A DNA stretch of 64,000 nt from Candidatus Undinarchaeota archaeon (GTDB taxonomy: Archaea; Undinarchaeota; Undinarchaeia; Undinarchaeales; UBA543), in NCBI GenBank assembly GCA_964567575.1, contig CAZMMZ010000007.1, forward strand, positions 2,090 to 66,089. Reading direction: 5' to 3'. Below the pieces are notes generated by a model. The model made no database searches, had not been told where the DNA came from, and saw nothing but the letters and a program-made list of their open reading frames with translations. The position numbers and the translations under genes were made by a program. Positions 1-55,306 of this stretch are shown piece after piece (the first letter of the stretch is position 1; each line of letters opens with the position of its first letter).

Positions 1-795
1 TGATTTATTTTTTGTAAGTTCTTTTATTGCCATCAGTGTTTTCAATTTCCCAAATTCTTTTTCAACCCACCTGATTGAAAATGGAAGCTCTCCAAATTCG
101 TTTTTTGACATTTCCAAAAGTTTCCTTGCTTCCCGATTCCTTGTTGGCTTGTCTTGTAAATATTCATAAATGTAAACTTCTTTTGCATCAGTTACCATTC
201 CACCACCATTAGTTGCGAATGGTTCAATTGCAACTGCCATTCCATCTTCCAATGCAATATTCGATTCGTTTTTGATATTTGGAACTGATATTCCAGCATG
301 AAGTTTATTCTGCTCGAGCAAATGCCCAGTTAAATTTGCAATTGGCACAACATCGAATTCAGTAATTGCAGTTTCAATAGCAGTTCCCAATTCACCTAAT
401 GTAACTCCTGGCTTTGCAATTTCAAGAGCAGCATTCAATCCTGCTTCTGCAGCTTTAATCAAATTCTTATGCTCTGCACAATTGTTCATTGAATATGTAA
501 CTGCACTATCAGCAATATAACCGTCAACATGCACCCCAATATCAATCTTCACTAAATCCTCTTTTCCAAAAGTTAAACCACAATTCAAATCTGGAGTAAA
601 GTGTGCAGCGTTTTCATTAATAGAAACATTCAAAGGAAATCCAATTTTTCCACCATCTTTTATAATCTTGGCTTCAATTTTATCAGCAATCTCGCGAACA
701 CTAGCACCTGGTTTAACAAGGTCTTTCGCAAGCTCCTGAGCTTTCTTTAGGATTTCTCCAGCTTGTTTGTATTTTTGAATTATTTCTTCTTCCAT
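1..795 (-). CDS. map: Methionine aminopeptidase, archaeal type 2 (3' end runs off the window)
   Basis: Absent from the ORF track because no stop lies in the window. My minus-strand translation from ATG 795-793 gives MEEEIIQKYKQAGEILKKAQELAKDLVKPGASVREIADKIE..GFPLNVSINENAAHFTP..IDIGVHVDGYIADSA..AIEPFATNGGG, the pita-bread MetAP pattern. The start overlaps the stop of the upstream gene by 16 nt. Confidence 0.85.
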   Translation of the reverse strand, partial: MEEEIIQKYKQAGEILKKAQELAKDLVKPGASVREIADKIEAKIIKDGGKIGFPLNVSINENAAHFTPDLNCGLTFGKEDLVKIDIGVHVDGYIADSAVTYSMNNCAEHKNLIKAAEAGLNAALEIAKPGVTLGELGTAIETAITEFDVVPIANLTGHLLEQNKLHAGISVPNIKNESNIALEDGMAVAIEPFATNGGGMVTDAKEVYIYEYLQDKPTRNREARKLLEMSKNEFGELPFSIRWVEKEFGKLKTLMAIKELTKNKS

Positions 796-1337
796 GCTCC
801 TTCCCTCAAAATTTCAATACTATCAGTAACTTTAATCACAGTACTTCCTTCTTTATATTTTGTCGGTCCACTATCTATAATATAATCTACTTTGTCGCGG
901 ATGCTTTTTGGAATTTCTTCAACAGTGCTTGGAGATTTTCCTCCAGCTTTATTTGCACTTGTTGATGTTATTGGCCCGAATCTTGAAACCAAGTCATAAG
1001 CATCAGGGTGCTCCGGTACTCTCATCCCAACAAACTCAGTATCTGTAATCCAATCCGGCACATTCTTTTTCTTTGCAACAATTGTAATTGGTCCTGGTAA
1101 ACTTAATTCAAAATCTGCAAGTTGCGTATCTGAAACAACTGCATACTTATCCATATCCTCTCGTCTCATTGCAACTGAAAGCGGCTTGTCAAATTTCCTC
1201 CCTTTCAAAGCATAAACTTTCTTCACGGCTTCTTCATTGAAAATATTAGCACCCAATCCGTAAACAGTTTCCGTTGGGTAAATAATCACACCTCCTTCAC
1301 GGAGAACTTTGATTGCTTCGTATAATTTATCAACCAT
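780..1337 (-). CDS. tsaC: L-threonylcarbamoyladenylate synthase (YrdC/Sua5 family, YrdC domain only)
   Basis: 185 aa. GGVIIYPTETVYGLGANIFNEEAVKKVYALKGRKFDKPLSV is the YrdC/Sua5 signature. Confidence 0.85.
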   Translation of the reverse strand: MVDKLYEAIKVLREGGVIIYPTETVYGLGANIFNEEAVKKVYALKGRKFDKPLSVAMRREDMDKYAVVSDTQLADFELSLPGPITIVAKKKNVPDWITDTEFVGMRVPEHPDAYDLVSRFGPITSTSANKAGGKSPSTVEEIPKSIRDKVDYIIDSGPTKYKEGSTVIKVTDSIEILREGAWKKK

Positions 1338-3772
1338 TATCCAAAATATTCACTCAGCTTTCCTTGCTTCTTCCCAAGCAGTTCATCTTCTCCATAGCCA
1401 AGCGCCTCCATCACTCTTGAAACAGCAGGAACAATCTGATGCTCAATATAATATTTCTTATCATAATTTTTGATATTAAATCCTTCAAGTGGTTTTGCTC
1501 GGTCCGAAACCTTACCCCCACCTTCAGCAATAGCATATCCAATTGTTGAACCTGTGCGGATATCCTCTCCTTTACTTTTCAGAATTTTAGCAACAGCAAT
1601 ATGCGGTGCCGTCACTAAATATTTATCAAGTGGCCGCGTTAAGTCTGTGTAAACTGCAAGATCTTCAATTGTCACATCCCCTGCATTAATTTTTTTAATA
1701 ACTTCTCTAACAACTTTGAAAGCTTTTTCAACATCTCCTTCTTTCAAAAGAGTTTCAATTGTTTTCTTTTGTGTTTCTTTTGCAATTGGGGACCAATCCT
1801 TCCTAACAAATTCAAGTCCTTTGATTTTGAGTTCTCCTTTTTCATCAATCATTGCATAGCGTTTCTTTGAAACAAACACTCCGCGCGTGTATAAATCTTC
1901 GAATTCCAGTTCCATAACTCCTGGCAATTCTTTATTTGCACGAATTTGGAATTTCTTTCCAATTTCTTTTATTTTTTTATCTTCTGTTTTTGTTGTAACA
2001 AAAAGAGAATCAGTATCTCCATAAACTGCTTTCAAATCAAATTCTTTTTCTGCAATATCAACAATCTTTTTGATGTACTCTCTGCCAAGTGCAGTAACAC
2101 TACTTGCCCCCTCACGAGTGTACCACCGAGATCCGCGATATGCTAAATAACCATAAGATGAATTTGCAAGAATCTTGAGTGTGTATTGCATGTTGTTCAG
2201 TTTGGTATATTCATCAGAGTCTTTCTTGCATTTCTTCATATCCTCTTTTATTTTCACACGCTCTTCAAGAATATTTCTTAAAACTGCTGGCATTAATCCA
2301 ATACGCTTCTCGCAGAACCAGTGCCCACCTGCAACCACTTTTGCTTTGCCTTTGCAACAGTCGCAGTCGATTGTGCTTTGGTCGATGTTGTGAGAAATTA
2401 TAATTGTTGGATACAGTGATCTGAAATCGAAGAGTGCAATGTTCTCGTGCATTCCTTTGTCTGGTTCTAAAACAAAAGCACCTTCAAATGCTTCGAATTG
2501 CGCGCGAGCTTCTTTCTCTTCAGACATTGGACGATTTGGAATTAATTCATTTCTTTCAAGTGCATTCCACATCAAATACGCTTCAACAAGTTGGCCGTAA
2601 GTTGTTCTGCTTGCATCGAAAAGAGGAACGCGAACTTTTTTTGCAATTTCATATTCACGAGGAAGGAATAAATCTGAAAGTTTTTTTGTAACAACTGCAT
2701 CTATGAGAGAATATTCGTAAAGTTCATCAAGTTTTTTCTTGTCGCCTTTCCAATATATCGGTATCTTTTTCCAATCAAGATCTTTTTTCCCTTCACCTTC
2801 TTTTAGGAAGTGGCCTGCAACGCTTTTCAAAGTCCGTTTATTGACTTGCCCAAGTGCTCCGCGCAGAATAATATTAACATAATGGAAAAGATCAATGTGC
2901 TCTCGGCCAGTCATACCAGCAGAGTGGTACCGCCCTTTGCTTCTCTGTTTAATTCCTCTATCATCTCTCCCGAGTTTCAGTTTGTAATCAAACTTTTTCG
3001 CTCGTGTATTGATGAAAGGCATATCGAAATTATCAGAGTTGTAAGCTGTGAGTATGTCAATATCGTTTTCTTCAATGAATTTTTCAAATGCTTGAAGAAT
3101 TCCTTTTTCATCTTTCACAACTTCAACAAAGTCTGGGCCTTTTTTTGTTGAGAAAACTTTTTTTATTTTGTCAGTTGCAACACTGAGCATTATCATTGGG
3201 TCTGTTTCCGGTTGTGGAAGCCCACCTGGGCCATAAGCTTCAATATCAAAAGCAGCGACATTCATTTTTGGAATTTCATCATCAACTTGTTTTGGCTCGC
3301 CTTCCATTTCAATTGCAATTTCAACTTTGAGTGGTGAATCAAATGGAGCTCCTTTGACTTTTATCATAGTCATTGGCTCAAGCTTCTTATCCAAAATGTA
3401 TCTGCGCCCGAATAAAATATCTGCTTCAAAATAATTTTCAACACCTTTAATTCGCTTAACAGCTTCGCGCGCTTCGCGAACTTGTGTTGGATTTTTCGTA
3501 TAGACTTTTGCTAATTCTGTTTTTTTTGTTTTGTAATATCTCTCCACTTTTTCAACTTTTACAATTTCATATTCTGAAGTTTTCATTTCTAGTAATCGTT
3601 TCTTCACATCTTCAAAACCATCATCAAGCAGTGCATAGAAATACGGTTCAAAAGTCTTGTCAGTAACTAAGATACTTTTCCCCTCTTTAGTTCTGCCAAA
3701 CATTCGAATTACTGCTTTTCCATTCACAAGTTCGTAATCAATGTCCAGCAAACAGAAAGTGTATTCTGCCAT
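1337..3772 (-). CDS. polB: DNA polymerase, family B
   Basis: 811 aa. Exonuclease motifs (FDIE, YNSDNFDMPF) and polymerase motifs (SLYPTII, KILANSSYGY, YGDTDSLFV). No intein-sized insertion. Confidence 0.95.
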   Translation of the reverse strand: MAEYTFCLLDIDYELVNGKAVIRMFGRTKEGKSILVTDKTFEPYFYALLDDGFEDVKKRLLEMKTSEYEIVKVEKVERYYKTKKTELAKVYTKNPTQVREAREAVKRIKGVENYFEADILFGRRYILDKKLEPMTMIKVKGAPFDSPLKVEIAIEMEGEPKQVDDEIPKMNVAAFDIEAYGPGGLPQPETDPMIMLSVATDKIKKVFSTKKGPDFVEVVKDEKGILQAFEKFIEENDIDILTAYNSDNFDMPFINTRAKKFDYKLKLGRDDRGIKQRSKGRYHSAGMTGREHIDLFHYVNIILRGALGQVNKRTLKSVAGHFLKEGEGKKDLDWKKIPIYWKGDKKKLDELYEYSLIDAVVTKKLSDLFLPREYEIAKKVRVPLFDASRTTYGQLVEAYLMWNALERNELIPNRPMSEEKEARAQFEAFEGAFVLEPDKGMHENIALFDFRSLYPTIIISHNIDQSTIDCDCCKGKAKVVAGGHWFCEKRIGLMPAVLRNILEERVKIKEDMKKCKKDSDEYTKLNNMQYTLKILANSSYGYLAYRGSRWYTREGASSVTALGREYIKKIVDIAEKEFDLKAVYGDTDSLFVTTKTEDKKIKEIGKKFQIRANKELPGVMELEFEDLYTRGVFVSKKRYAMIDEKGELKIKGLEFVRKDWSPIAKETQKKTIETLLKEGDVEKAFKVVREVIKKINAGDVTIEDLAVYTDLTRPLDKYLVTAPHIAVAKILKSKGEDIRTGSTIGYAIAEGGGKVSDRAKPLEGFNIKNYDKKYYIEHQIVPAVSRVMEALGYGEDELLGKKQGKLSEYFG

Positions 3773-6903: not shown

Positions 6904-7953
6904 TTGAGTATGAATGTGGGAATTGTTGGCTATGGTGCTTATGTTCCGTGCTATCGTATCTCTGTTGAGGAGATTGCGAAAGTGTGGGGCGGTTCAGCTG
7001 ACAGTATTAAGAATGGCTTAAATGTCCAAGAGAAGGCAGTTCCGGCTCCTGACGAGGATACAGCGACTATCTCAGTAGAGGCTAGCAGAAACGCAATGAA
7101 GCGGGCTCGGATTGAACCGGAAAAACTCGGAGCGATTTACGTTGGCTCTGAATCACATCCTTACGCTGTTAAACCCACAGCCACAATTCTCGCCGAAGCT
7201 CTTGAAGCAACACCGAACCTGACTGCAGCGGATTTCGAATTCGCATGCAAAGCAGGCACTGCTGCAATGCAAGCAATTACTGGTTTAGTAAAAAGTTGCA
7301 TGGTTGATTATGGTCTTGCATGCGGTGCAGACACATCACAAGGTGCACCTGGCAACGCACTTGAATACACTGCAGCTGCTGGTGGCGCGTCTTTTATTAT
7401 CGGCAGAGAAAACATTATTGCAAATCTTGATGAAACTCTTTCATTCACAACGGACACTCCAGATTTCTGGCGCAGGGAAAATCAAGAGTATCCACAACAC
7501 GGTGGTCGATTCACTGGCGAACCTGCATATTTCAAACACACAATTTCAGCAACTGAAAATATGCTGAAAAAAATTGGAAAATCCCCAAGCGATTTTACTT
7601 ATTTTATTCCTCATCAACCAAATGGAAAGTTTCCTATTCAAGTTTCAAAAAAACTCGGCTTTACAAAGGAACAAGTCGAGCCAGGACTTCTTTCTCCTCG
7701 AATTGGAAATACTTATTCAGGGTGTGTTCCGCTTGCGCTTTCTGCAGTTCTTGATGTGGCGCAACCAGGAGAGCAAATTCTTGTAACTTCATACGGCTCT
7801 GGCGCTGGTTCAGATTCTTTTGTTTTTACAATCACTGACAAAATCGATGAGGTTCGTGATCTCGCGCCTCGAACAATGTCTTACATTAACAAACGCAAAT
7901 ACATTGACTACGGCACATATGCAAAGTACAGGGGGAAGTTAAAACTCGAATGA
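6904..7953 (+). CDS. Hydroxymethylglutaryl-CoA synthase (archaeal)
   Basis: [24 protein letters not shown] and [12 protein letters not shown] are typical of archaeal HMGCS. The track start is TTG 6904; ATG 6910 (MNVGIVG) is more likely. The stop overlaps the thiolase start (ATGA at 7950). Confidence 0.9.
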
Positions 7954-9110
7954 AAAAAGAAGTTGCTGTAATCGGAATCGGAATTACACAGTTCGGAGAA
8001 CTTTGGGATGAATCGTTCCGAACCTTATTTGTCAAATCTGGTGCGGAAGCAATTCAAGATGCTGGAATCAAATCCGACGATATAGACGCGCTGTTCGGCG
8101 GTAACATGAGTGGCGGTCAATTCATTGGCCAAGAACATCTTGCTTCTTTAGCAATGGACCACACTGCTCTGCTTCCAAAACCAGCAATGCGAATTGAAGC
8201 TGCGTGCGCATCTGGTGGTATGGCGGTTGCTTCTGCTTACATGGCTGTGAAATCTGGAATGCATGATGTGGTTGTTGCAGGTGGAGTAGAGAAAATGACT
8301 GATGTTCTTACAAGTCACACAACCAGCGCACTTTCAACTGCAGCAGATCAGGAATGGGAAGCATTCCAAGGAGTAACTTTCCCAGCATTATATGCAATGA
8401 TTGCGCGCAGGCACATGTACGAGCACGGAACAACTGAGGAACAGCTTGCACAAATTGCTGTGAAGAATCACGACAATGGTGAGAAAAATCCTAAAGCACA
8501 TTTCCGTAAAAAAATAACAATTGATCATGTTCTTAATTCTGCGAAAATCGCAGATCCAATTAAATTACTGGATTGCTCGCCTGTAAGTGACGGCGCTGCT
8601 GTTGTAATTCTTGCAAGCGCAGAGAAAGCAAAAGAATTTTGCGATGATCCTATTTGGCTTGCTGGAACAGGCCAAGCAACTGGTTCAATTGCTCTGCACA
8701 ATCGAAAAGATATTTGCAGACTTGGTGCAACAGTTGAAGCATCACGCAAAGCTTATGAAATGGCAGGCATCACCCCAAAACAGGTAAGCTGCGCCGAAGT
8801 CCACGATTGTTTTACAATCGCTGAACTTTGTGCAATAGAAGATTTAGGATTTTGCGAGAAAGGACAAGGCGGAAGATTTGTTCAAGATGGAGAAACTGCA
8901 TTATCTGGTTCAATTCCTATTAACACATCCGGAGGATTGAAAGCAAAAGGTCATCCTGTTGGTGCAACCGGAGTTGCGCAAGTTGTTGAAGCAGTTCTTC
9001 AGCTCCGAAGCAAAGCAGGTCCTCGTCAAGTTTCTGGTGCGGAATATGTTCTTACTCATAATGTTGGTGGTAGTGGGGGTACTGCATCTGTTCATATCTT
9101 TTCACAATGA
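7950..9110 (+). CDS. Acetyl-CoA acetyltransferase (thiolase)
   Basis: 386 aa. Thiolase fold with catalytic Cys context ([10 protein letters not shown]) and C-terminal HPVGATG / NVGGSGG. ATGA overlaps at both ends. Confidence 0.9.
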
Positions 9111-9508
9111 ATAATGTACCACGCTTTTGGAGAGAAATACCGCAACGGTATAATTTCATTGGAAATAAATGCAAAGGTTGCGATTGGATTAATTTCCCTC
9201 CAAGAAGTATTTGCAAAAAATGCGGATCATCAGAATTTGAGCGATTTGATTTGAAAGGAGAAGGTAAGGTTATTACCTACTCTGTAATTAGGGCGGCGCC
9301 TCCTGGTTTCGATAACTTAGTTCCTTATGTTGTTGCTATAATTTGTCTTAATGATGGTCCACGAATCACTTCGCAAATTGTAGATTGCGATCCAGAAGAA
9401 ATTGAAATAGGAAAAAAAGTTAAAGTATGCTTCAGAAAGATTGTTGAGGACGGAAAAGCTGGTGCAATTTCGTATGGATATAAATTCAGGTTATTAGATG
9501 AACAGTGA
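9107..9508 (+). CDS. DUF35 OB-fold/zinc-ribbon protein (thiolase-HMGCS scaffold subunit)
   Basis: 133 aa. CxxC..CxxC rubredoxin-like ribbon (CKGCDW..CKKCGS) followed by an OB fold. The position between thiolase and HMGR matches the known archaeal thiolase/HMGCS/DUF35 complex. Confidence 0.85.
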   Translation: MNNVPRFWREIPQRYNFIGNKCKGCDWINFPPRSICKKCGSSEFERFDLKGEGKVITYSVIRAAPPGFDNLVPYVVAIICLNDGPRITSQIVDCDPEEIEIGKKVKVCFRKIVEDGKAGAISYGYKFRLLDEQ

Positions 9509-10697
9509 ACCAATTTCTAATCAGGGCTTCGCGAGTAAAACGAGCGAATGCCCTCGGCCATCGTCCGCGGCCAGGCGGACTTCACGAGTTTCCAAATTTT
9601 ATGAGCGCTCAATTGAAGAGCGACTTGAATTTGTTAAAGAATTCGCAGATTTATCTGATGAAGAAATCAATTTATTGAAATCTAGCCCTGATCAGAACAC
9701 ATCTGACAAAATAATTGAGAATGTTATAGGGAATTATTCACTTCCAATTGGAATTGCAGTGAATTTCCAAATTAATGATAAAGATTATTTGATTCCAATG
9801 GTTTTAGAGGAGCCATCAGTTGTTGCAGCTGCTTCAAATGCTGCGAAACTCGCTCGAGAGTGTGGTGGGTTCACTACATCAGCTGATGATCCAGTGATGA
9901 TTGGGCAGATTCACGTTTTCGATAGCAAGCACCCAAATGTAGTGCAACACATTTTAGCAAAAAAAGAAGAGTTACTTTCTGTTGCAAATTCAAAAGATCC
10001 AATGATGATTGAACGCGGAGGTGGTGCAAAAGATTTGGATGTGAAAATTATTAATGATAATCATATTCGCATACATCTTTATGTTGATTGTCGCGATGCA
10101 ATGGGTGCAAATGCAGTAAATACCATGGTTGAAGCAATTGCGCCATTAATTACTGATGAAATCGGGGGGAAAGCAGTTCTTAAGATTATTTCTAATATGG
10201 CAGATCGTAGACTTGTACGTGCAGAATGCACATTCAGTAGAGATCTTCTTGGAGATGATACAATTGATCTTATTCACAAGGGTCAATTAGCTGCTGAAGC
10301 AGATTCTTATCGCGCAGCAACACATAACAAAGGAATTATGAATGCAATCTCAGCAATTTGCGTAGCAACTGGAAATGATTGGCGCGCAGTTGAGGCAGGG
10401 GCTCACGCTTTTGCCGGGCGCGGCGAAGGATATAATCCTCTTACAAAATATCAAATATTAAATCATGGTGATTTACTTGCAAGCATTGAGCTTCCACTTG
10501 CTGTTGCAACTGTTGGCGGCTCAACAAAACTTCCACAGGCGCGAGTGAATCAAAAAATTATTGGTGCGCAAACTTCACAAGAACTTGCTCAGGTAATGGC
10601 TGCAGCAGGATTGGCGCAAAACTTCGCAGCTCTGAAAGCAATTACAACAGAAGGAATACAGAAAGGGCATATGCGATTGCACGAGCGGAAAAACTAA
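9498..10697 (+). CDS. hmgA: HMG-CoA reductase, class II, with an unusual about 30-aa N-terminal leader encoded by a GC-rich repeat element
   Basis: ENVIGNYSLPIGIAVNF, LEEPSVVAAASNAAKLAR and DAMGANAVNTMVEAIAPLI are class II (P. mevalonii / S. aureus type) motifs. The only ATG/GTG/TTG upstream of the conserved FYERSIEERL region is ATG 9498, so the ORF reads through element copy C. Confidence 0.9.
   Translation: MNSEPISNQGFASKTSECPRPSSAARRTSRVSKFYERSIEERLEFVKEFADLSDEEINLLKSSPDQNTSDKIIENVIGNYSLPIGIAVNFQINDKDYLIPMVLEEPSVVAAASNAAKLARECGGFTTSADDPVMIGQIHVFDSKHPNVVQHILAKKEELLSVANSKDPMMIERGGGAKDLDVKIINDNHIRIHLYVDCRDAMGANAVNTMVEAIAPLITDEIGGKAVLKIISNMADRRLVRAECTFSRDLLGDDTIDLIHKGQLAAEADSYRAATHNKGIMNAISAICVATGNDWRAVEAGAHAFAGRGEGYNPLTKYQILNHGDLLASIELPLAVATVGGSTKLPQARVNQKIIGAQTSQELAQVMAAAGLAQNFAALKAITTEGIQKGHMRLHERKN
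9506..9580 (+). repeat. GC-rich two-hairpin element, copy C (inside the hmgA 5' end)
   Basis: TGAACCAATTTCTAATC / AGGGC-TTCGC..GCGAA-T-GCCCT / CGGCCATC / GTCCGC-GGCCAG-GCGGAC. The core is near-identical to copies A and B. Its first 3 nt are the DUF35 stop codon. Confidence 0.8.
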
Positions 10698-10731
10698 AAC
10701 TATTTATTCTCTTTAAACAAATCACTATCTA

Positions 10732-11211
10732 ATGTCAAAAGATAAAATAATTTGTGAAAAAAAGGGTATGTTTCTTAAATTAGCTAATTCTCCTTCTTCT
10801 TATTCACGAATCTCTGATTTTTCAAGAGAATACACGCAGCTCATACAAACAGCTCCGCATTTAAGAAATACGCAGGCAAGTCCTGTTGGCATTCAATGTT
10901 TTATTGAAAATAAAGAAAAAGAGATTCTTGCAGTTGCAGTGCTTGCAGTTGATAATGACGAGTGTGGGGTTGAAATATCTTATTTTTTTGTCAAATCCAA
11001 AGAAAGAAGAAAAGGTGTCGGCTACTTTTTCCTTGAGAATTTAGTAAAATACTGTCAACACCAATATTCAAAGTTAGCTGTAATTAGTATAACTGTTATT
11101 GAAGGTAGTGATTGGATAAAAGAAGGTGGTTCTATTCGTCTCTTTACTAAATTTGGTTTTCATCCTATTCTTACTATGCATAATTATTACGAGCTTGTTT
11201 TAAGAGATTAA
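10732..11211 (+). CDS. GNAT-family N-acetyltransferase
   Basis: 159 aa. The acetyl-CoA binding motif A-like segment ERRKGVGYFFLENLVKY follows a beta-strand (EISYFFVKSK). Confidence 0.6.
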   Translation: MSKDKIICEKKGMFLKLANSPSSYSRISDFSREYTQLIQTAPHLRNTQASPVGIQCFIENKEKEILAVAVLAVDNDECGVEISYFFVKSKERRKGVGYFFLENLVKYCQHQYSKLAVISITVIEGSDWIKEGGSIRLFTKFGFHPILTMHNYYELVLRD

Positions 11212-11261
11212 TTTTTAATATGAAATTGCATGAGCGCAAGAATTAGCCAAAAATATTAACA

Positions 11262-11368
11262 GTTATGCTGCGGCATAGTGGTGTGAGGTTAACCTCACAC
11301 TCTGAAAGGATTCAGAGGCCATCCGCCCTGCATTCGCTTCGCGAAGCAGGTCAATTGAAATTTGGTAA
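11262..11368 (-). ncRNA. Candidate structured RNA / divergent enlarged member (copy D) of the GC-rich hairpin family
   Basis: Minus-strand reading: TTACCAAATTTCAATTGA / CCTGC-TTCGC-GAA-GCGAA-T-GCAGG, then GCGG..CCGC enclosing two perfect hairpins (CTCTGA/TCAGAG; TGTGAGG-TTAA-CCTCACA). It shares the leader and the hairpin-1 architecture with copies A-C, with compensatory changes. It lies between convergent genes. The strand is inferred only from similarity to A-C. Confidence 0.45.
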
Positions 11369-11371
11369 TAG

Positions 11372-11830
11372 TTATTTGTAAATAAAATTCAATGTCTGAC
11401 TTGTTGATGCAGTTAATCCAGATGTTTCACCTGTGCAAGTTATATCATATCTCACGGTGTTTGGTTTCAAAGCTGCTTCATATTCTGTGTTAAAACTCAG
11501 AATCAAATAATTTTCCCCATTGTCTTGGCAAGTTATTGAACGCAGTTGCGCATTATTAATTCCAATTGATTTCTCTCCATAAAATTCTTCAATATCACAA
11601 TTAACACTCTCTTCTTGCAGTTTCATATACACACCAATAGAAATTCCAGAATATATTCCAGCAATGTTTTTAGTTAATTCAAATGAAGTTCCTGGAACCT
11701 TCTTGCAAAAAGCGCTATCAGTTGTCATATCGTTCTCGCTCGCATAATTCTTTAATACAAAAGTTTCTCCAAGACAACCACTGCTAAGTATAATAGCTAA
11801 CAATATCAAAGTGATAATTATTTTTTTCAT
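11372..11830 (-). CDS. Secreted/lipoprotein-like hypothetical protein
   Basis: 152 aa. N-terminal signal peptide ending in SSGC (lipobox-like). No recognised domain. Confidence 0.55.
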   Translation of the reverse strand: MKKIIITLILLAIILSSGCLGETFVLKNYASENDMTTDSAFCKKVPGTSFELTKNIAGIYSGISIGVYMKLQEESVNCDIEEFYGEKSIGINNAQLRSITCQDNGENYLILSFNTEYEAALKPNTVRYDITCTGETSGLTASTSQTLNFIYK

Positions 11831-42908: not shown

Positions 42909-42932
42909 TTTGAAATTAGTAGCCCCGAGCAG
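42909..42932 (-). repeat. Second copy of the tRNA-Gln 3' end (tRNA nt 61-73 plus trailer)
   Basis: 42915-42932 is an exact 18-nt copy of 43033-43050 (attagtagccccgagcag). Similarity extends to 24 nt with 2 mismatches. Confidence 0.9.
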
Positions 42933-43011
42933 TTCCGAACGTCCGCCTTGCCGCGGACAATGGCATGAGGGCATTCGCCTACGGGCGAAGCCCTGGTTTG
43001 AAATTGGTTCA
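42933..43011 (-). repeat. GC-rich two-hairpin element, copy A (downstream of tRNA-Gln)
   Basis: Minus strand: TGAACCAATTTCAAACC / AGGGC-TTCGCC-CGTA-GGCGAA-T-GCCCT / CATGCCATT / GTCCGC-GGCAAG-GCGGAC / GTTCGGAA. Confidence 0.85.
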
Positions 43012-43037
43012 GATCTGTCTAAGTTATTTGTGATTAG

Positions 43038-43110
43038 TAGCCCCGAGCAGATTCGAACTGCTGTCCCAAGCTCCAGGGGCTCGGATGATTGACCACTACA
43101 CCACGGGGCT
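43038..43110 (-). tRNA. tRNA-Gln (CUG), no encoded CCA, apparent C at position 33
   Basis: Hand-folded: AGCCCCG-TG-GTGT..-CGAGC CCCTGGA GCTTG-GGAC-AGCAG TTCGAAT CTGCT-CGGGGCT-A. The acceptor and D region match archaeal tRNA-Gln. Confidence 0.8.
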
Positions 43111-55071: not shown

Positions 55072-55138
55072 ACTAATCCCCTCTCTTGTTTGCTATTACT
55101 ACATTTAGCCGTTTATTAATTTTTGTATTAAAGTAAAA

Positions 55139-55154
55139 AAGCACCACCGGAGAG
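55139..55154 (-). repeat. Second copy of the tRNA-Arg(CCU) 3' end (tRNA nt 61-73 plus trailer)
   Basis: A 16-nt exact copy of 55229-55244 (aagcaccaccggagag). The adjoining AT-rich 15-17 nt (55126-55140 vs 55214-55230) are also similar. Confidence 0.9.
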
Positions 55155-55214
55155 TTCCGAACGTCCGCCTGGCCGCGGACAATGGCCAAGGGCATTCGAC
55201 TTCGTCGAAGCCCT
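55155..55214 (-). repeat. GC-rich two-hairpin element, copy B (downstream of tRNA-Arg CCU)
   Basis: Minus strand: AGGGC-TTCGAC-GAA-GTCGAA-T-GCCCT / TGGCCATT / GTCCGC-GGCCAG-GCGGAC / GTTCGGAA. Confidence 0.85.
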
Positions 55215-55231
55215 ATTAAAAATGTAAGAAG

Positions 55232-55306
55232 CACCACCGGAGAGATTTGAACTCTCGACTTTTTCCTTAGGAGGGAAACGCCTTATCCAGACTAGGCTAC
55301 GGTGGT
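55232..55306 (-). tRNA. tRNA-Arg (CCU), no encoded CCA
   Basis: Hand-folded: ACCACCG-TA-GCCT AGTCTGGATA AGGC-G-TTTCC CTCCTAA GGAAA-AAGTC-GAGAG TTCAAAT CTCTC-CGGTGGT-G. Confidence 0.88.

Follow-up and report, generated by a model that had tools for sequence, protein, structure and literature searches.

The locus described here raises the question of how a gene of the mevalonate pathway can carry a GC-rich hairpin repeat at its very beginning, and whether this repeat is translated as part of the enzyme. The gene is hmgA, encoding 3-hydroxy-3-methylglutaryl coenzyme A (HMG-CoA) reductase (HMGR), and it is contained in a stretch of 64,000 nucleotides from Candidatus Undinarchaeota archaeon, a marine DPANN archaeon that is uncultured (GenBank assembly GCA_964567575.1, contig CAZMMZ010000007.1, positions 2,090 to 66,089 of the forward strand). 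We refer to this whole stretch as the window, and all positions are those of the window unless another locus is named. At the junction between a DUF35 gene and hmgA we observed an inserted member of a repeat family, called copy C. The best explanation, which we hold to be probable, is that copy C is a tolerated, co-translated selfish insertion similar to the Rickettsia palindromic elements (RPEs).

The inserted repeat and the start of hmgA

The argument makes use of the following features.

9107 to 9508, forward strand: DUF35 gene (ChsH2-like zinc ribbon and OB fold), from the list of open reading frames (ORFs) and its translation, with Pfam PF12172 and PF01796
9498 to 10697, forward strand: hmgA, class II HMGR of 399 amino acids, with residues 4-28 encoded by the element
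9506 to 9580, forward strand: inserted repeat copy C, 75 nt, TGAACCAATTTC...GGCGGAC, delimited by the empty sites of relatives and by the family boundaries, which are those of an intergenic copy on contig L016
9523 to 9554, forward strand: hairpin 1, GGGCTTCGC / GCGAA(T)GCCC with an 11-nt loop, from the fold and the alignment of copies
about 9535 to 9542, forward strand: 8-nt expansion GTAAAACG in the loop of hairpin 1, present in no other copy
9563 to 9580, forward strand: hairpin 2, GTCCGC-GGCCAG-GCGGAC, from the fold; the most conserved part of the family

The hmgA product, whose N-terminus is MNSEPISNQGFASKTSECPRPSSAARRTSRVS (in a longer reading, MNSEPISNQGFASKTSECPRPSSAARRTSRVSKFYERS), matched Pfam PF00368 with E = 1.7e-109 over residues 39-395, and the class II HMGRs of known structure 1QAX and 6DIO with E of about 1e-98. 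It retains every column that is invariant among 66 HMGR sequences, including S29, F34 and R42 as well as E105, K278, D294 and H395. In the Pseudomonas mevalonii enzyme the catalytic Glu/Lys/Asp/His residues are numbered Glu83, Lys267, Asp283 and His381. With its HMG-CoA_red domain and this catalytic set, the protein is by its sequence a class II HMG-CoA reductase. At the opposite end (10680-10697), hmgA and its relatives P0003-P0008, P0011 and P0014 terminate about 4 residues past the catalytic His (..GHMRLHERKN). These DPANN-type class II enzymes do not have the approximately 35-40 residues (the rest of the 'flap') that follow this His in 1QAX, 6DIO and many archaeal homologues.

Homology to other HMGRs begins at S29 (position 9582), in good agreement with a first-pass annotation of the window, which had placed the beginning of the conserved sequence at about 9584. 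In alignments with five solved class II HMGRs, residue 29 corresponds to their own residue 3-5 (residue 25 in one tagged chain), and the solved chains begin 2-4 residues ahead of the S29 position; the HMGRs of relatives start with M-K/T-S/T-S-R-V/I-S-G-F-Y. Upstream of the conserved sequence, an in-frame TAG (9495-9497) directly abuts the ATG at 9498. Downstream of this ATG, the codon scan gave the next in-frame ATG, GTG or TTG at codon 60 (a TTG, position 9675), which bears out the earlier statement that none lies between 9498 and the conserved sequence. A start at codon 60 would delete the invariant S29, F34 and R42, so that conserved structure would be lost with a downstream start. All sequence criteria require that a full-length HMGR be translated from 9498 and through both hairpins, as had been proposed; the scan of start codons and the alignments of solved HMGRs from residue 29 both point to this. 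A translated leader is thus the best-supported reading of the locus, and we regard it as likely.

Copy C is located between codons 3 and 4 of hmgA, with a boundary that is ambiguous by 2 nt (9504-9578 is equally possible). The GC content of 9500-9590 reaches 52-65%, with 65% for the element itself, as compared to a background of about 35%. Of the forward frames of the element, 0 and 1 are open, and three stops interrupt frame 2. In the frame of hmgA the element encodes 25 extra residues, EPISNQGFASKTSECPRPSSAARRT, and the peptides of the leader include the tryptic NSEPISNQGFASK and TSECPRPSSAAR. The loop of hairpin 1, which is GAA in every other copy, is GA-GTAAAACG-A in copy C, giving a unit of 75 nt instead of 67; in fact, metagenome copies aligned to copy C leave out exactly 8 nt at 9535. 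It is because of this expansion of the 67-nt unit that the insert is a multiple of three. An insert of 67 nt would put hmgA out of frame; either the donor was already expanded or the expansion came later. That in the single intragenic copy only a frame-preserving version persists is the pattern that would be expected if the frame is read, and not a proof of it.

The same event has changed the end of the DUF35 gene. The TGA stop of this gene (9506-9508) consists of the three opening bases of the element, at the start of TGAACCAATTTC, and the end of DUF35 overlaps the start of hmgA by 11 nt. When the element is cut out in silico, the DUF35 frame runs on by 10 codons to the TGA at 9602-9604, with the addition of FTSFQIL; therefore, the insertion created the present stop codon. 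The position of copy C at the junction and the use of its TGA as the DUF35 stop, noted previously, are confirmed by the ORF coordinates, and the same word is present in the sequence of copy A.

A different possibility is that the leader is not in the working enzyme at all, either because translation starts downstream at a non-canonical codon, the element being plain 5' untranslated region, or because the gene has lost its function too recently for decay to be visible. In a near-clonal population a recent knock-out would still look intact, and a dependence of Undinarchaeales on external lipids, which has been proposed (PMC7414124), could make selection less strict. Chance alone would provide an insert that is in frame and open at roughly 0.2. 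However, besides the lack of any ATG, GTG or TTG before codon 60, the sole near-cognate Ile codons are ATT at codon 6, within the element, and ATT at codon 39, past the invariant residues. Moreover, the 8-nt expansion unique to copy C brings the length back to a multiple of three, which would be fortuitous in a frame that is not read, the ATG has the same position relative to the end of DUF35 as in relatives, and the catalytic and invariant residues are all intact. For these reasons we consider that an untranslated leader or a dead gene is improbable.

Empty sites, fixation and the leader peptide

The closest HMGRs are 67-71% identical to the hmgA product and all are without the leader. The contigs of relatives are syntenic (HMG-CoA synthase, thiolase, DUF35, HMGR, then EamA/YdjM/PyrI), and the alignment of orthologues and junctions suggested by the first-pass annotation did reveal empty sites in three of them: the junction without the 75 nt is TGAAAATGAAAACTTCACGAGTC in L010, TGAAAATGAAATCTTCACGCGTT in L013 and GTATGAAAACTTCCAGAGTT in L012. 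The empty site of these loci is ATGAAA(A/T)CTTC..., encoding MK(T/S)SRVSGFY, as compared to ATGAACAG-[75 nt]-TTCACGAGTTTCC in the window. Deletion of 9506-9580, the family unit TGAACC...GGCGGAC, gives MNSSRVSKFY, and deletion of 9504-9578 gives MNTSRVSKFY; both forms occur among relatives. The hairpin-1 motif was found in 0 of the 5 relatives' loci. Since syntenic relatives have empty sites, the segment is an insertion of a member of the repeat family. No relative and no protein among those searched carries the leader as ordinary conserved sequence, the observation that had been named as one that would refute the earlier interpretation.

The filled allele is fixed and does not stem from misassembly. 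One and the same 399-aa protein is encoded on 10 contigs of JGI, NCBI and ENA assemblies that are independent of one another; the one protein variant differs by a single substitution, which lies outside the leader. Among eight loci compared there were 0-2 single-nucleotide polymorphisms per 1200 nt, none of them in the element or in the 150 nt upstream, and full-length contigs differ at 0 positions. The stretch is contained in more than 15 DNA runs from many studies, with seawater and hydrothermal vents as sources; DNA depths of 5-10x are reached in samples of mesopelagic, oxygen-minimum-zone or vent origin. No empty-site allele was found in contigs from 8 runs at 80-85% likeness, bearing in mind that contigs drop rare variants. 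Over 9300-10700, metagenomes of seawater and hydrothermal vents from more than 10 studies show a nearly clonal population of the window. Because of this near-absence of diversity, selection on the leader is not measurable.

The leader has no homologues. A word search with residues 1-40 retrieved only the protein itself, and an exhaustive phmmer scan over 1.84 billion representatives returned a single match, low in complexity and spurious, to the Ser/Gly-rich repeat protein P0126. The AlphaFold2 model (66-sequence alignment) has a mean predicted local distance difference test score (pLDDT) of 87 and a predicted template-modelling score of 0.87, with residues 1-25 below a pLDDT of 50; the leader is therefore predicted to be a disordered tail on a normal HMGR fold. 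An 'RR' motif in the leader resembling a Tat signal was discarded, as no hydrophobic region follows it. For annotation, this means that the 399-aa call from 9498 is right, and that the odd N-terminus is derived from the element and is no targeting signal.

The closest relative, L009 (3408-4916; HMGR 70% identical), offers a comparison for N-terminal additions. On this single metagenome contig DUF35 and HMGR form a natural fusion (P0003, 502 aa) through the linker DQPKNNQNL, with no stop, no start and no repeat element at the junction. Judging from this one contig, the HMGR of this lineage appears to tolerate a much larger N-terminal addition. It is conceivable that the insertion in hmgA has been domesticated: the peptide could tether HMGR to a complex of thiolase, HMG-CoA synthase and DUF35, as a non-covalent counterpart of the fusion in the sister lineage, or the overlap and a stem closing the element could tie HMGR synthesis strictly to DUF35 translation and fix the stoichiometry. 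We give this a slim chance. The leader is species-specific, predicted to be disordered, and without sequence variation that would show selection, and the suggestion of a leader exapted as coding sequence finds no support here.

The repeat family

Copy C belongs to a family that is found elsewhere in the window and in other contigs. The pattern of hairpin 1, GCTTCG-N3-15-CGAATGC, occurs four times in the window as compared to 0 expected (100 shuffles): in copy C at 9526-9551, and on the reverse strand at 11330-11347 (copy D), 42971-42991 (copy A) and 55192-55211 (copy B). The further copies are as follows.

42913 to 43011, reverse strand: copy A, after tRNA-Gln(CTG), whose 3' end is repeated past the element
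55135 to 55214, reverse strand: copy B, after tRNA-Arg(CCT), whose 3' end is repeated past the element
11262 to 11368, reverse strand: copy D, a related element that shares the AT-rich head and a variant of hairpin 1; the downstream hairpins differ

Hairpin 2 is common to copies A, B and C, as GTCCGCGGC(C/A)AGGCGGAC, and is invariant in 9 aligned copies except for one loop base. Hairpin 1 shows compensatory variation of its apical pair between copies (GCC/GGC, GAC/GTC, GC/GC), with weak statistics given about 7 distinct copies. In copies A and B the element is followed by GTTCGGAAC and then by the duplicate 3' end of that tRNA. A like layout was observed after tRNA-Gln(TTG) and tRNA-Leu(TAA) in archaeon UBA543 and two Tara contigs, and after tRNA-Ser(CGA) in L015. 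A metagenome scan for the element gave 5 loci, and contigs of the metagenomes in which the window is present gave 4-5 further flank contexts. From these sequences, the family would amount to roughly six or more copies per genome, most of them just 3' of tRNA genes.

A copy without a tRNA is found in L016, where its 70 nt (1197-1266) extend exactly from the stop codon of one gene (789-1196, forward strand) to that of another, convergent with it (1267-2910, reverse strand). In this position the element could act as a bidirectional 3'-end structure.

Searches of the databases for related elements gave little. In Rfam, the window yielded only tRNAs at the gathering threshold, and at E <= 10 the segment 9440-9640 yielded only two sub-threshold CRISPR-repeat matches. 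With regard to a viral origin, the hairpin-2 pattern had 0 matches in IMG/VR, and a loose hairpin-1 pattern had 50, which is about the number estimated by chance.

In the tRNA-linked copies (42913-43110 and 55135-55306; L014:4535-4951; L015:3600-3765), hairpin 2 is followed by GTTCGGA(A/G)C, a run that is independent of the T-loop of the tRNA itself (TTCGAAT or TTCAAAT). Then come the 3' strand of the tRNA's own T-stem, its acceptor strand and a few trailer bases, a duplicate of 15-21 nt in all. The distance from the tRNA to the head of the element is about 0-33 nt, and five different tRNAs are targeted. A simple target duplication of fixed length does not explain the sequences of these copies.

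At copy C itself, the flanks AACAG|...|TTCAC show no duplication, and the ends are complementary over only 4-6 nt (GAAC/GTTC type). A faint likeness of the left and right flanks was considered as a target-site duplication and rejected, because it is present also in element-free relatives and hence ancestral. Copy C adjoins TTCACGA and GTTTC (9579-9593), and the L016 copy adjoins TTACAT. The target in hmgA, (G)AAC-TTCACGA-GTTT(C), faintly resembles a T-arm, with a short stem and a 7-nt loop starting with TTCA. Speculatively, and with no statistics, such a target might explain why a tRNA-seeking element landed in hmgA.

Some observations concern the composition of the elements. Copy D begins directly after the stop of a gene for a 152-aa protein, with the head ACCAAATTTCAATTGA and the hairpin-1 variant CCTGCTTCGCGAAGCGAATGCAGG, and continues with the other hairpins CTCTGAATCCTTTCAGAG and TGTGAGGTTAACCTCACA. 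One metagenome copy couples hairpin 2 to a similar TGTGAGGTTAA... module. These sequences suggest that hairpins shuffle as modules. At the foot of hairpin 2, the preceding (C/T)GTC forms the stem CGTCCGC...GCGGACG (9559-9580 in the window, and in other copies). 'CGTC-tagged' repetitive extragenic palindromic (REP) sequences are recognised by RAYT/Y1 transposases (PMC3733652), and the CGTC foot resembles them.

RNA structure, mechanism and comparison with known elements

The 111 nt from 9490 to 9600 fold into a Y shape with a minimum free energy (MFE) of -33.2 kcal/mol (z = -2.66). The two hairpins are joined by a closing stem.

9500 to 9509, forward strand: 5' strand of the closing stem (GAAC.GUGAA), which includes the G of the start codon, from the MFE and centroid folds
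9581 to 9591, forward strand: 3' strand of the closing stem (UUCAC..GUUU), codons S29-V31, from the fold; ancestral hmgA sequence, common to the element-free L010

In this stem, 9500-9503 and 9505-9509 pair with 9581-9585 and 9588-9591, and a comparable closing stem (UCUGAAC/GUUCGGA) forms in copy A. The first-pass annotation had considered the hairpins as a possible point of translational control. The ensemble cost of unpairing -15 to +15 around the ATG is 7.3 kcal/mol, which is within the range of element-free relatives (6.1-7.7) and below the value of the in-silico empty site (9.1); the other starts of the operon cost 4.2-10.1 kcal/mol. In this model, therefore, the element does not occlude initiation. 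The hairpins are placed at +26 to +83, beyond an initiation footprint.

These values bear on the hypothesis that the hairpins and the stem touching the start codon are kept as an exapted control of the mRNA, either throttling HMGR or strictly coupling it to DUF35, or serving as an RNase processing or stability site. This hypothesis is compatible with a translated leader. The fold is more stable than shuffled sequences, as the z value shows, the closing stem does reach the start codon (G9500-A9509 with 9581-9591), and the allele is fixed; in addition, MITE (miniature inverted-repeat transposable element) hairpins that regulate neighbouring mRNAs are known from Correia/NEMIS and ERIC (PMC2229807). 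The compensatory change in hairpin 1 indicates that structure matters to the family, but the needs of transposition explain this conservation equally well. Against control stand also the opening cost and the position of the hairpins given above, the restriction of the insertion to one near-clonal species and the lack of an Rfam match. A control function is thus unlikely, and neither exaptation nor a regulatory role is supported; the proposal of a control point in its earlier form finds no sustain in the model.

The closing stem could also suggest excision of the element from the mRNA, as would happen with the tRNA-splicing endonuclease acting on a bulge-helix-bulge (BHB), so that MNSSRVS... 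is restored. In fact, the ends of the element pair with each other and with the flanking exon (GUGAA/UUCAC), the family is otherwise tied to tRNA genes, and exact removal of 9506-9580 leaves an ORF like that of relatives. In the archaeal BHB, a helix of 4 bp separates two 3-nt bulges, one on each strand. The MFE and centroid structures of 9490-9600 show instead, between two short helices, no more than a 1-nt bulge opposite a 2-nt one, which is not a BHB and led us to reject splicing of this type. Excision would, moreover, leave unexplained the multiple-of-three length, the stop-free frame and the 8-nt correction, and we judge it very improbable.

The events leading to the present locus may be outlined for a tolerated, co-translated insertion. 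A gene-less, GC-rich two-hairpin element would have inserted in hmgA between codons 3 and 4, and since the 75-nt insert is open in the hmgA frame the gene would have survived. Translation would begin at the original ATG (9498) and pass through both hairpins, giving an HMGR with 25 additional disordered N-terminal residues, and the same event would have provided DUF35 with its new stop codon. A ribosome ending at the UGA at 9506-9508 would come to rest 8 nt past the AUG and on the closing stem, which is the usual geometry for termination-reinitiation. Coupling of this kind, as at the other junctions of the operon, would be retained; it could bring ribosomes to the ATG and open the closing stem. 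In its effect, the insertion would be a tolerated passenger, neutral or mildly harmful, with no demonstrated adaptation. Undinarchaeales are reported to keep the mevalonate pathway without complete lipid synthesis (PMC7414124), and therefore some room for relaxed selection on hmgA may exist.

The operon that precedes the junction comprises two further genes.

6904 to 7953, forward strand: HMG-CoA synthase gene
7950 to 9110, forward strand: thiolase gene

On the other side, a GNAT gene on the same strand begins 35 nt past hmgA in the list of window ORFs, so that hmgA need not be the last cistron of the mevalonate operon, as it had been called. The hmgA and GNAT genes are bracketed by copies C and D, in inverted orientation. 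The content between hmgA and the convergent EamA gene differs across relatives: it is GNAT and the gene for the 152-aa protein in the window (10732-11830), two other small genes in L009 (4913-5971) and nothing in L010 (4156-5019).

Some points weigh against a translated, tolerated insertion. The locus was found in no RNA run, and three polyA metatranscriptomes, from a study whose DNA contains it, had zero coverage of it. A random insertion has a chance of about 1/3 x 2/3 of being in frame and open. The near-clonality of the population means that an intact ORF says little on long-term selection, and neither a test of the ratio of non-synonymous to synonymous substitutions nor a covariation test is possible at copy C. 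A second HMGR gene may exist elsewhere in the genome, and initiation may occur at near-cognate codons, for which the candidates in the sequence are ACG (codon 15) and AGG (codon 26).

Among known systems, the RPEs (Ogata et al. 2000) are the closest. They are found in frame in 19-44 genes of Rickettsia, and the gmk product that carries one is translated and active (PMC2229807, PMC10969869). The likeness consists of a short hairpin repeat in a reduced genome, present as a stop-free in-frame insert in a conserved housekeeping enzyme, with the host ORF intact, the extra peptide at the surface or unstructured, and orthologues with empty sites. Copy C belongs by its sequence to this RPE-like class: it is a member of a family, has kept its hairpins, has an empty site in relatives, and is a stop-free multiple of three in an intact host gene. 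It differs in length (75 nt vs. about 100-150) and in being GC-rich in an AT-rich archaeal genome. Furthermore, one intragenic copy is known as compared to 19-44, there are two separate hairpins instead of one long stem, the other copies are tied to tRNA 3' ends, and translation is here deduced from sequence.

The enterobacterial and neisserial repeats ERIC, YPAL and the 107-bp Correia elements also fuse in frame to ORFs (PMC2229807). Like copy C, the ERIC, YPAL/RU-2 and Correia elements are non-autonomous, their open frames join ORFs and their RNA hairpins can affect neighbouring mRNAs (PMC2229807), but they carry terminal inverted repeats and TA target duplications, whereas copy C has no meaningful terminal inverted repeat or target duplication; for the same reason a strict MITE was rejected. 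An archaeal precedent of hairpin repeats fused into protein genes is given by the palindromic repeats with coding potential of Methanocaldococcus jannaschii (Suyama et al. 2005, as cited and described in a review, PMC2229807), in another organism and an unrelated sequence family. As regards elements of the IS200/IS605 type (PATE/REP-like), the hairpins and the absence of terminal repeats and target duplications at copies C and L016 fit, and the tRNA-end duplicates of other copies are not in line with this type. The fusion in L009 concerns the same junction and operon, but arose by loss of the stop and the start, without a repeat.

In-frame insertion of the RPE type is already well known, and only an experimental demonstration of translation or of an acquired function would make the conceptual gain more than small. 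If domestication were true, a selfish, tRNA-targeting mini-element would have been recruited to the assembly or control of the mevalonate pathway in a genome-reduced archaeon. The most instructive details are the 8-nt expansion of the loop that fits the frame and the simultaneous creation of the DUF35 stop, a single insertion giving DUF35 a new stop and HMGR a new N-terminus. As a tolerated insertion, copy C would represent a clean archaeal (DPANN) case of a selfish hairpin repeat absorbed into an enzyme of an essential pathway, with an exact empty site in relatives, and would indicate that very small symbiont genomes carry active mini-elements that remodel gene junctions.

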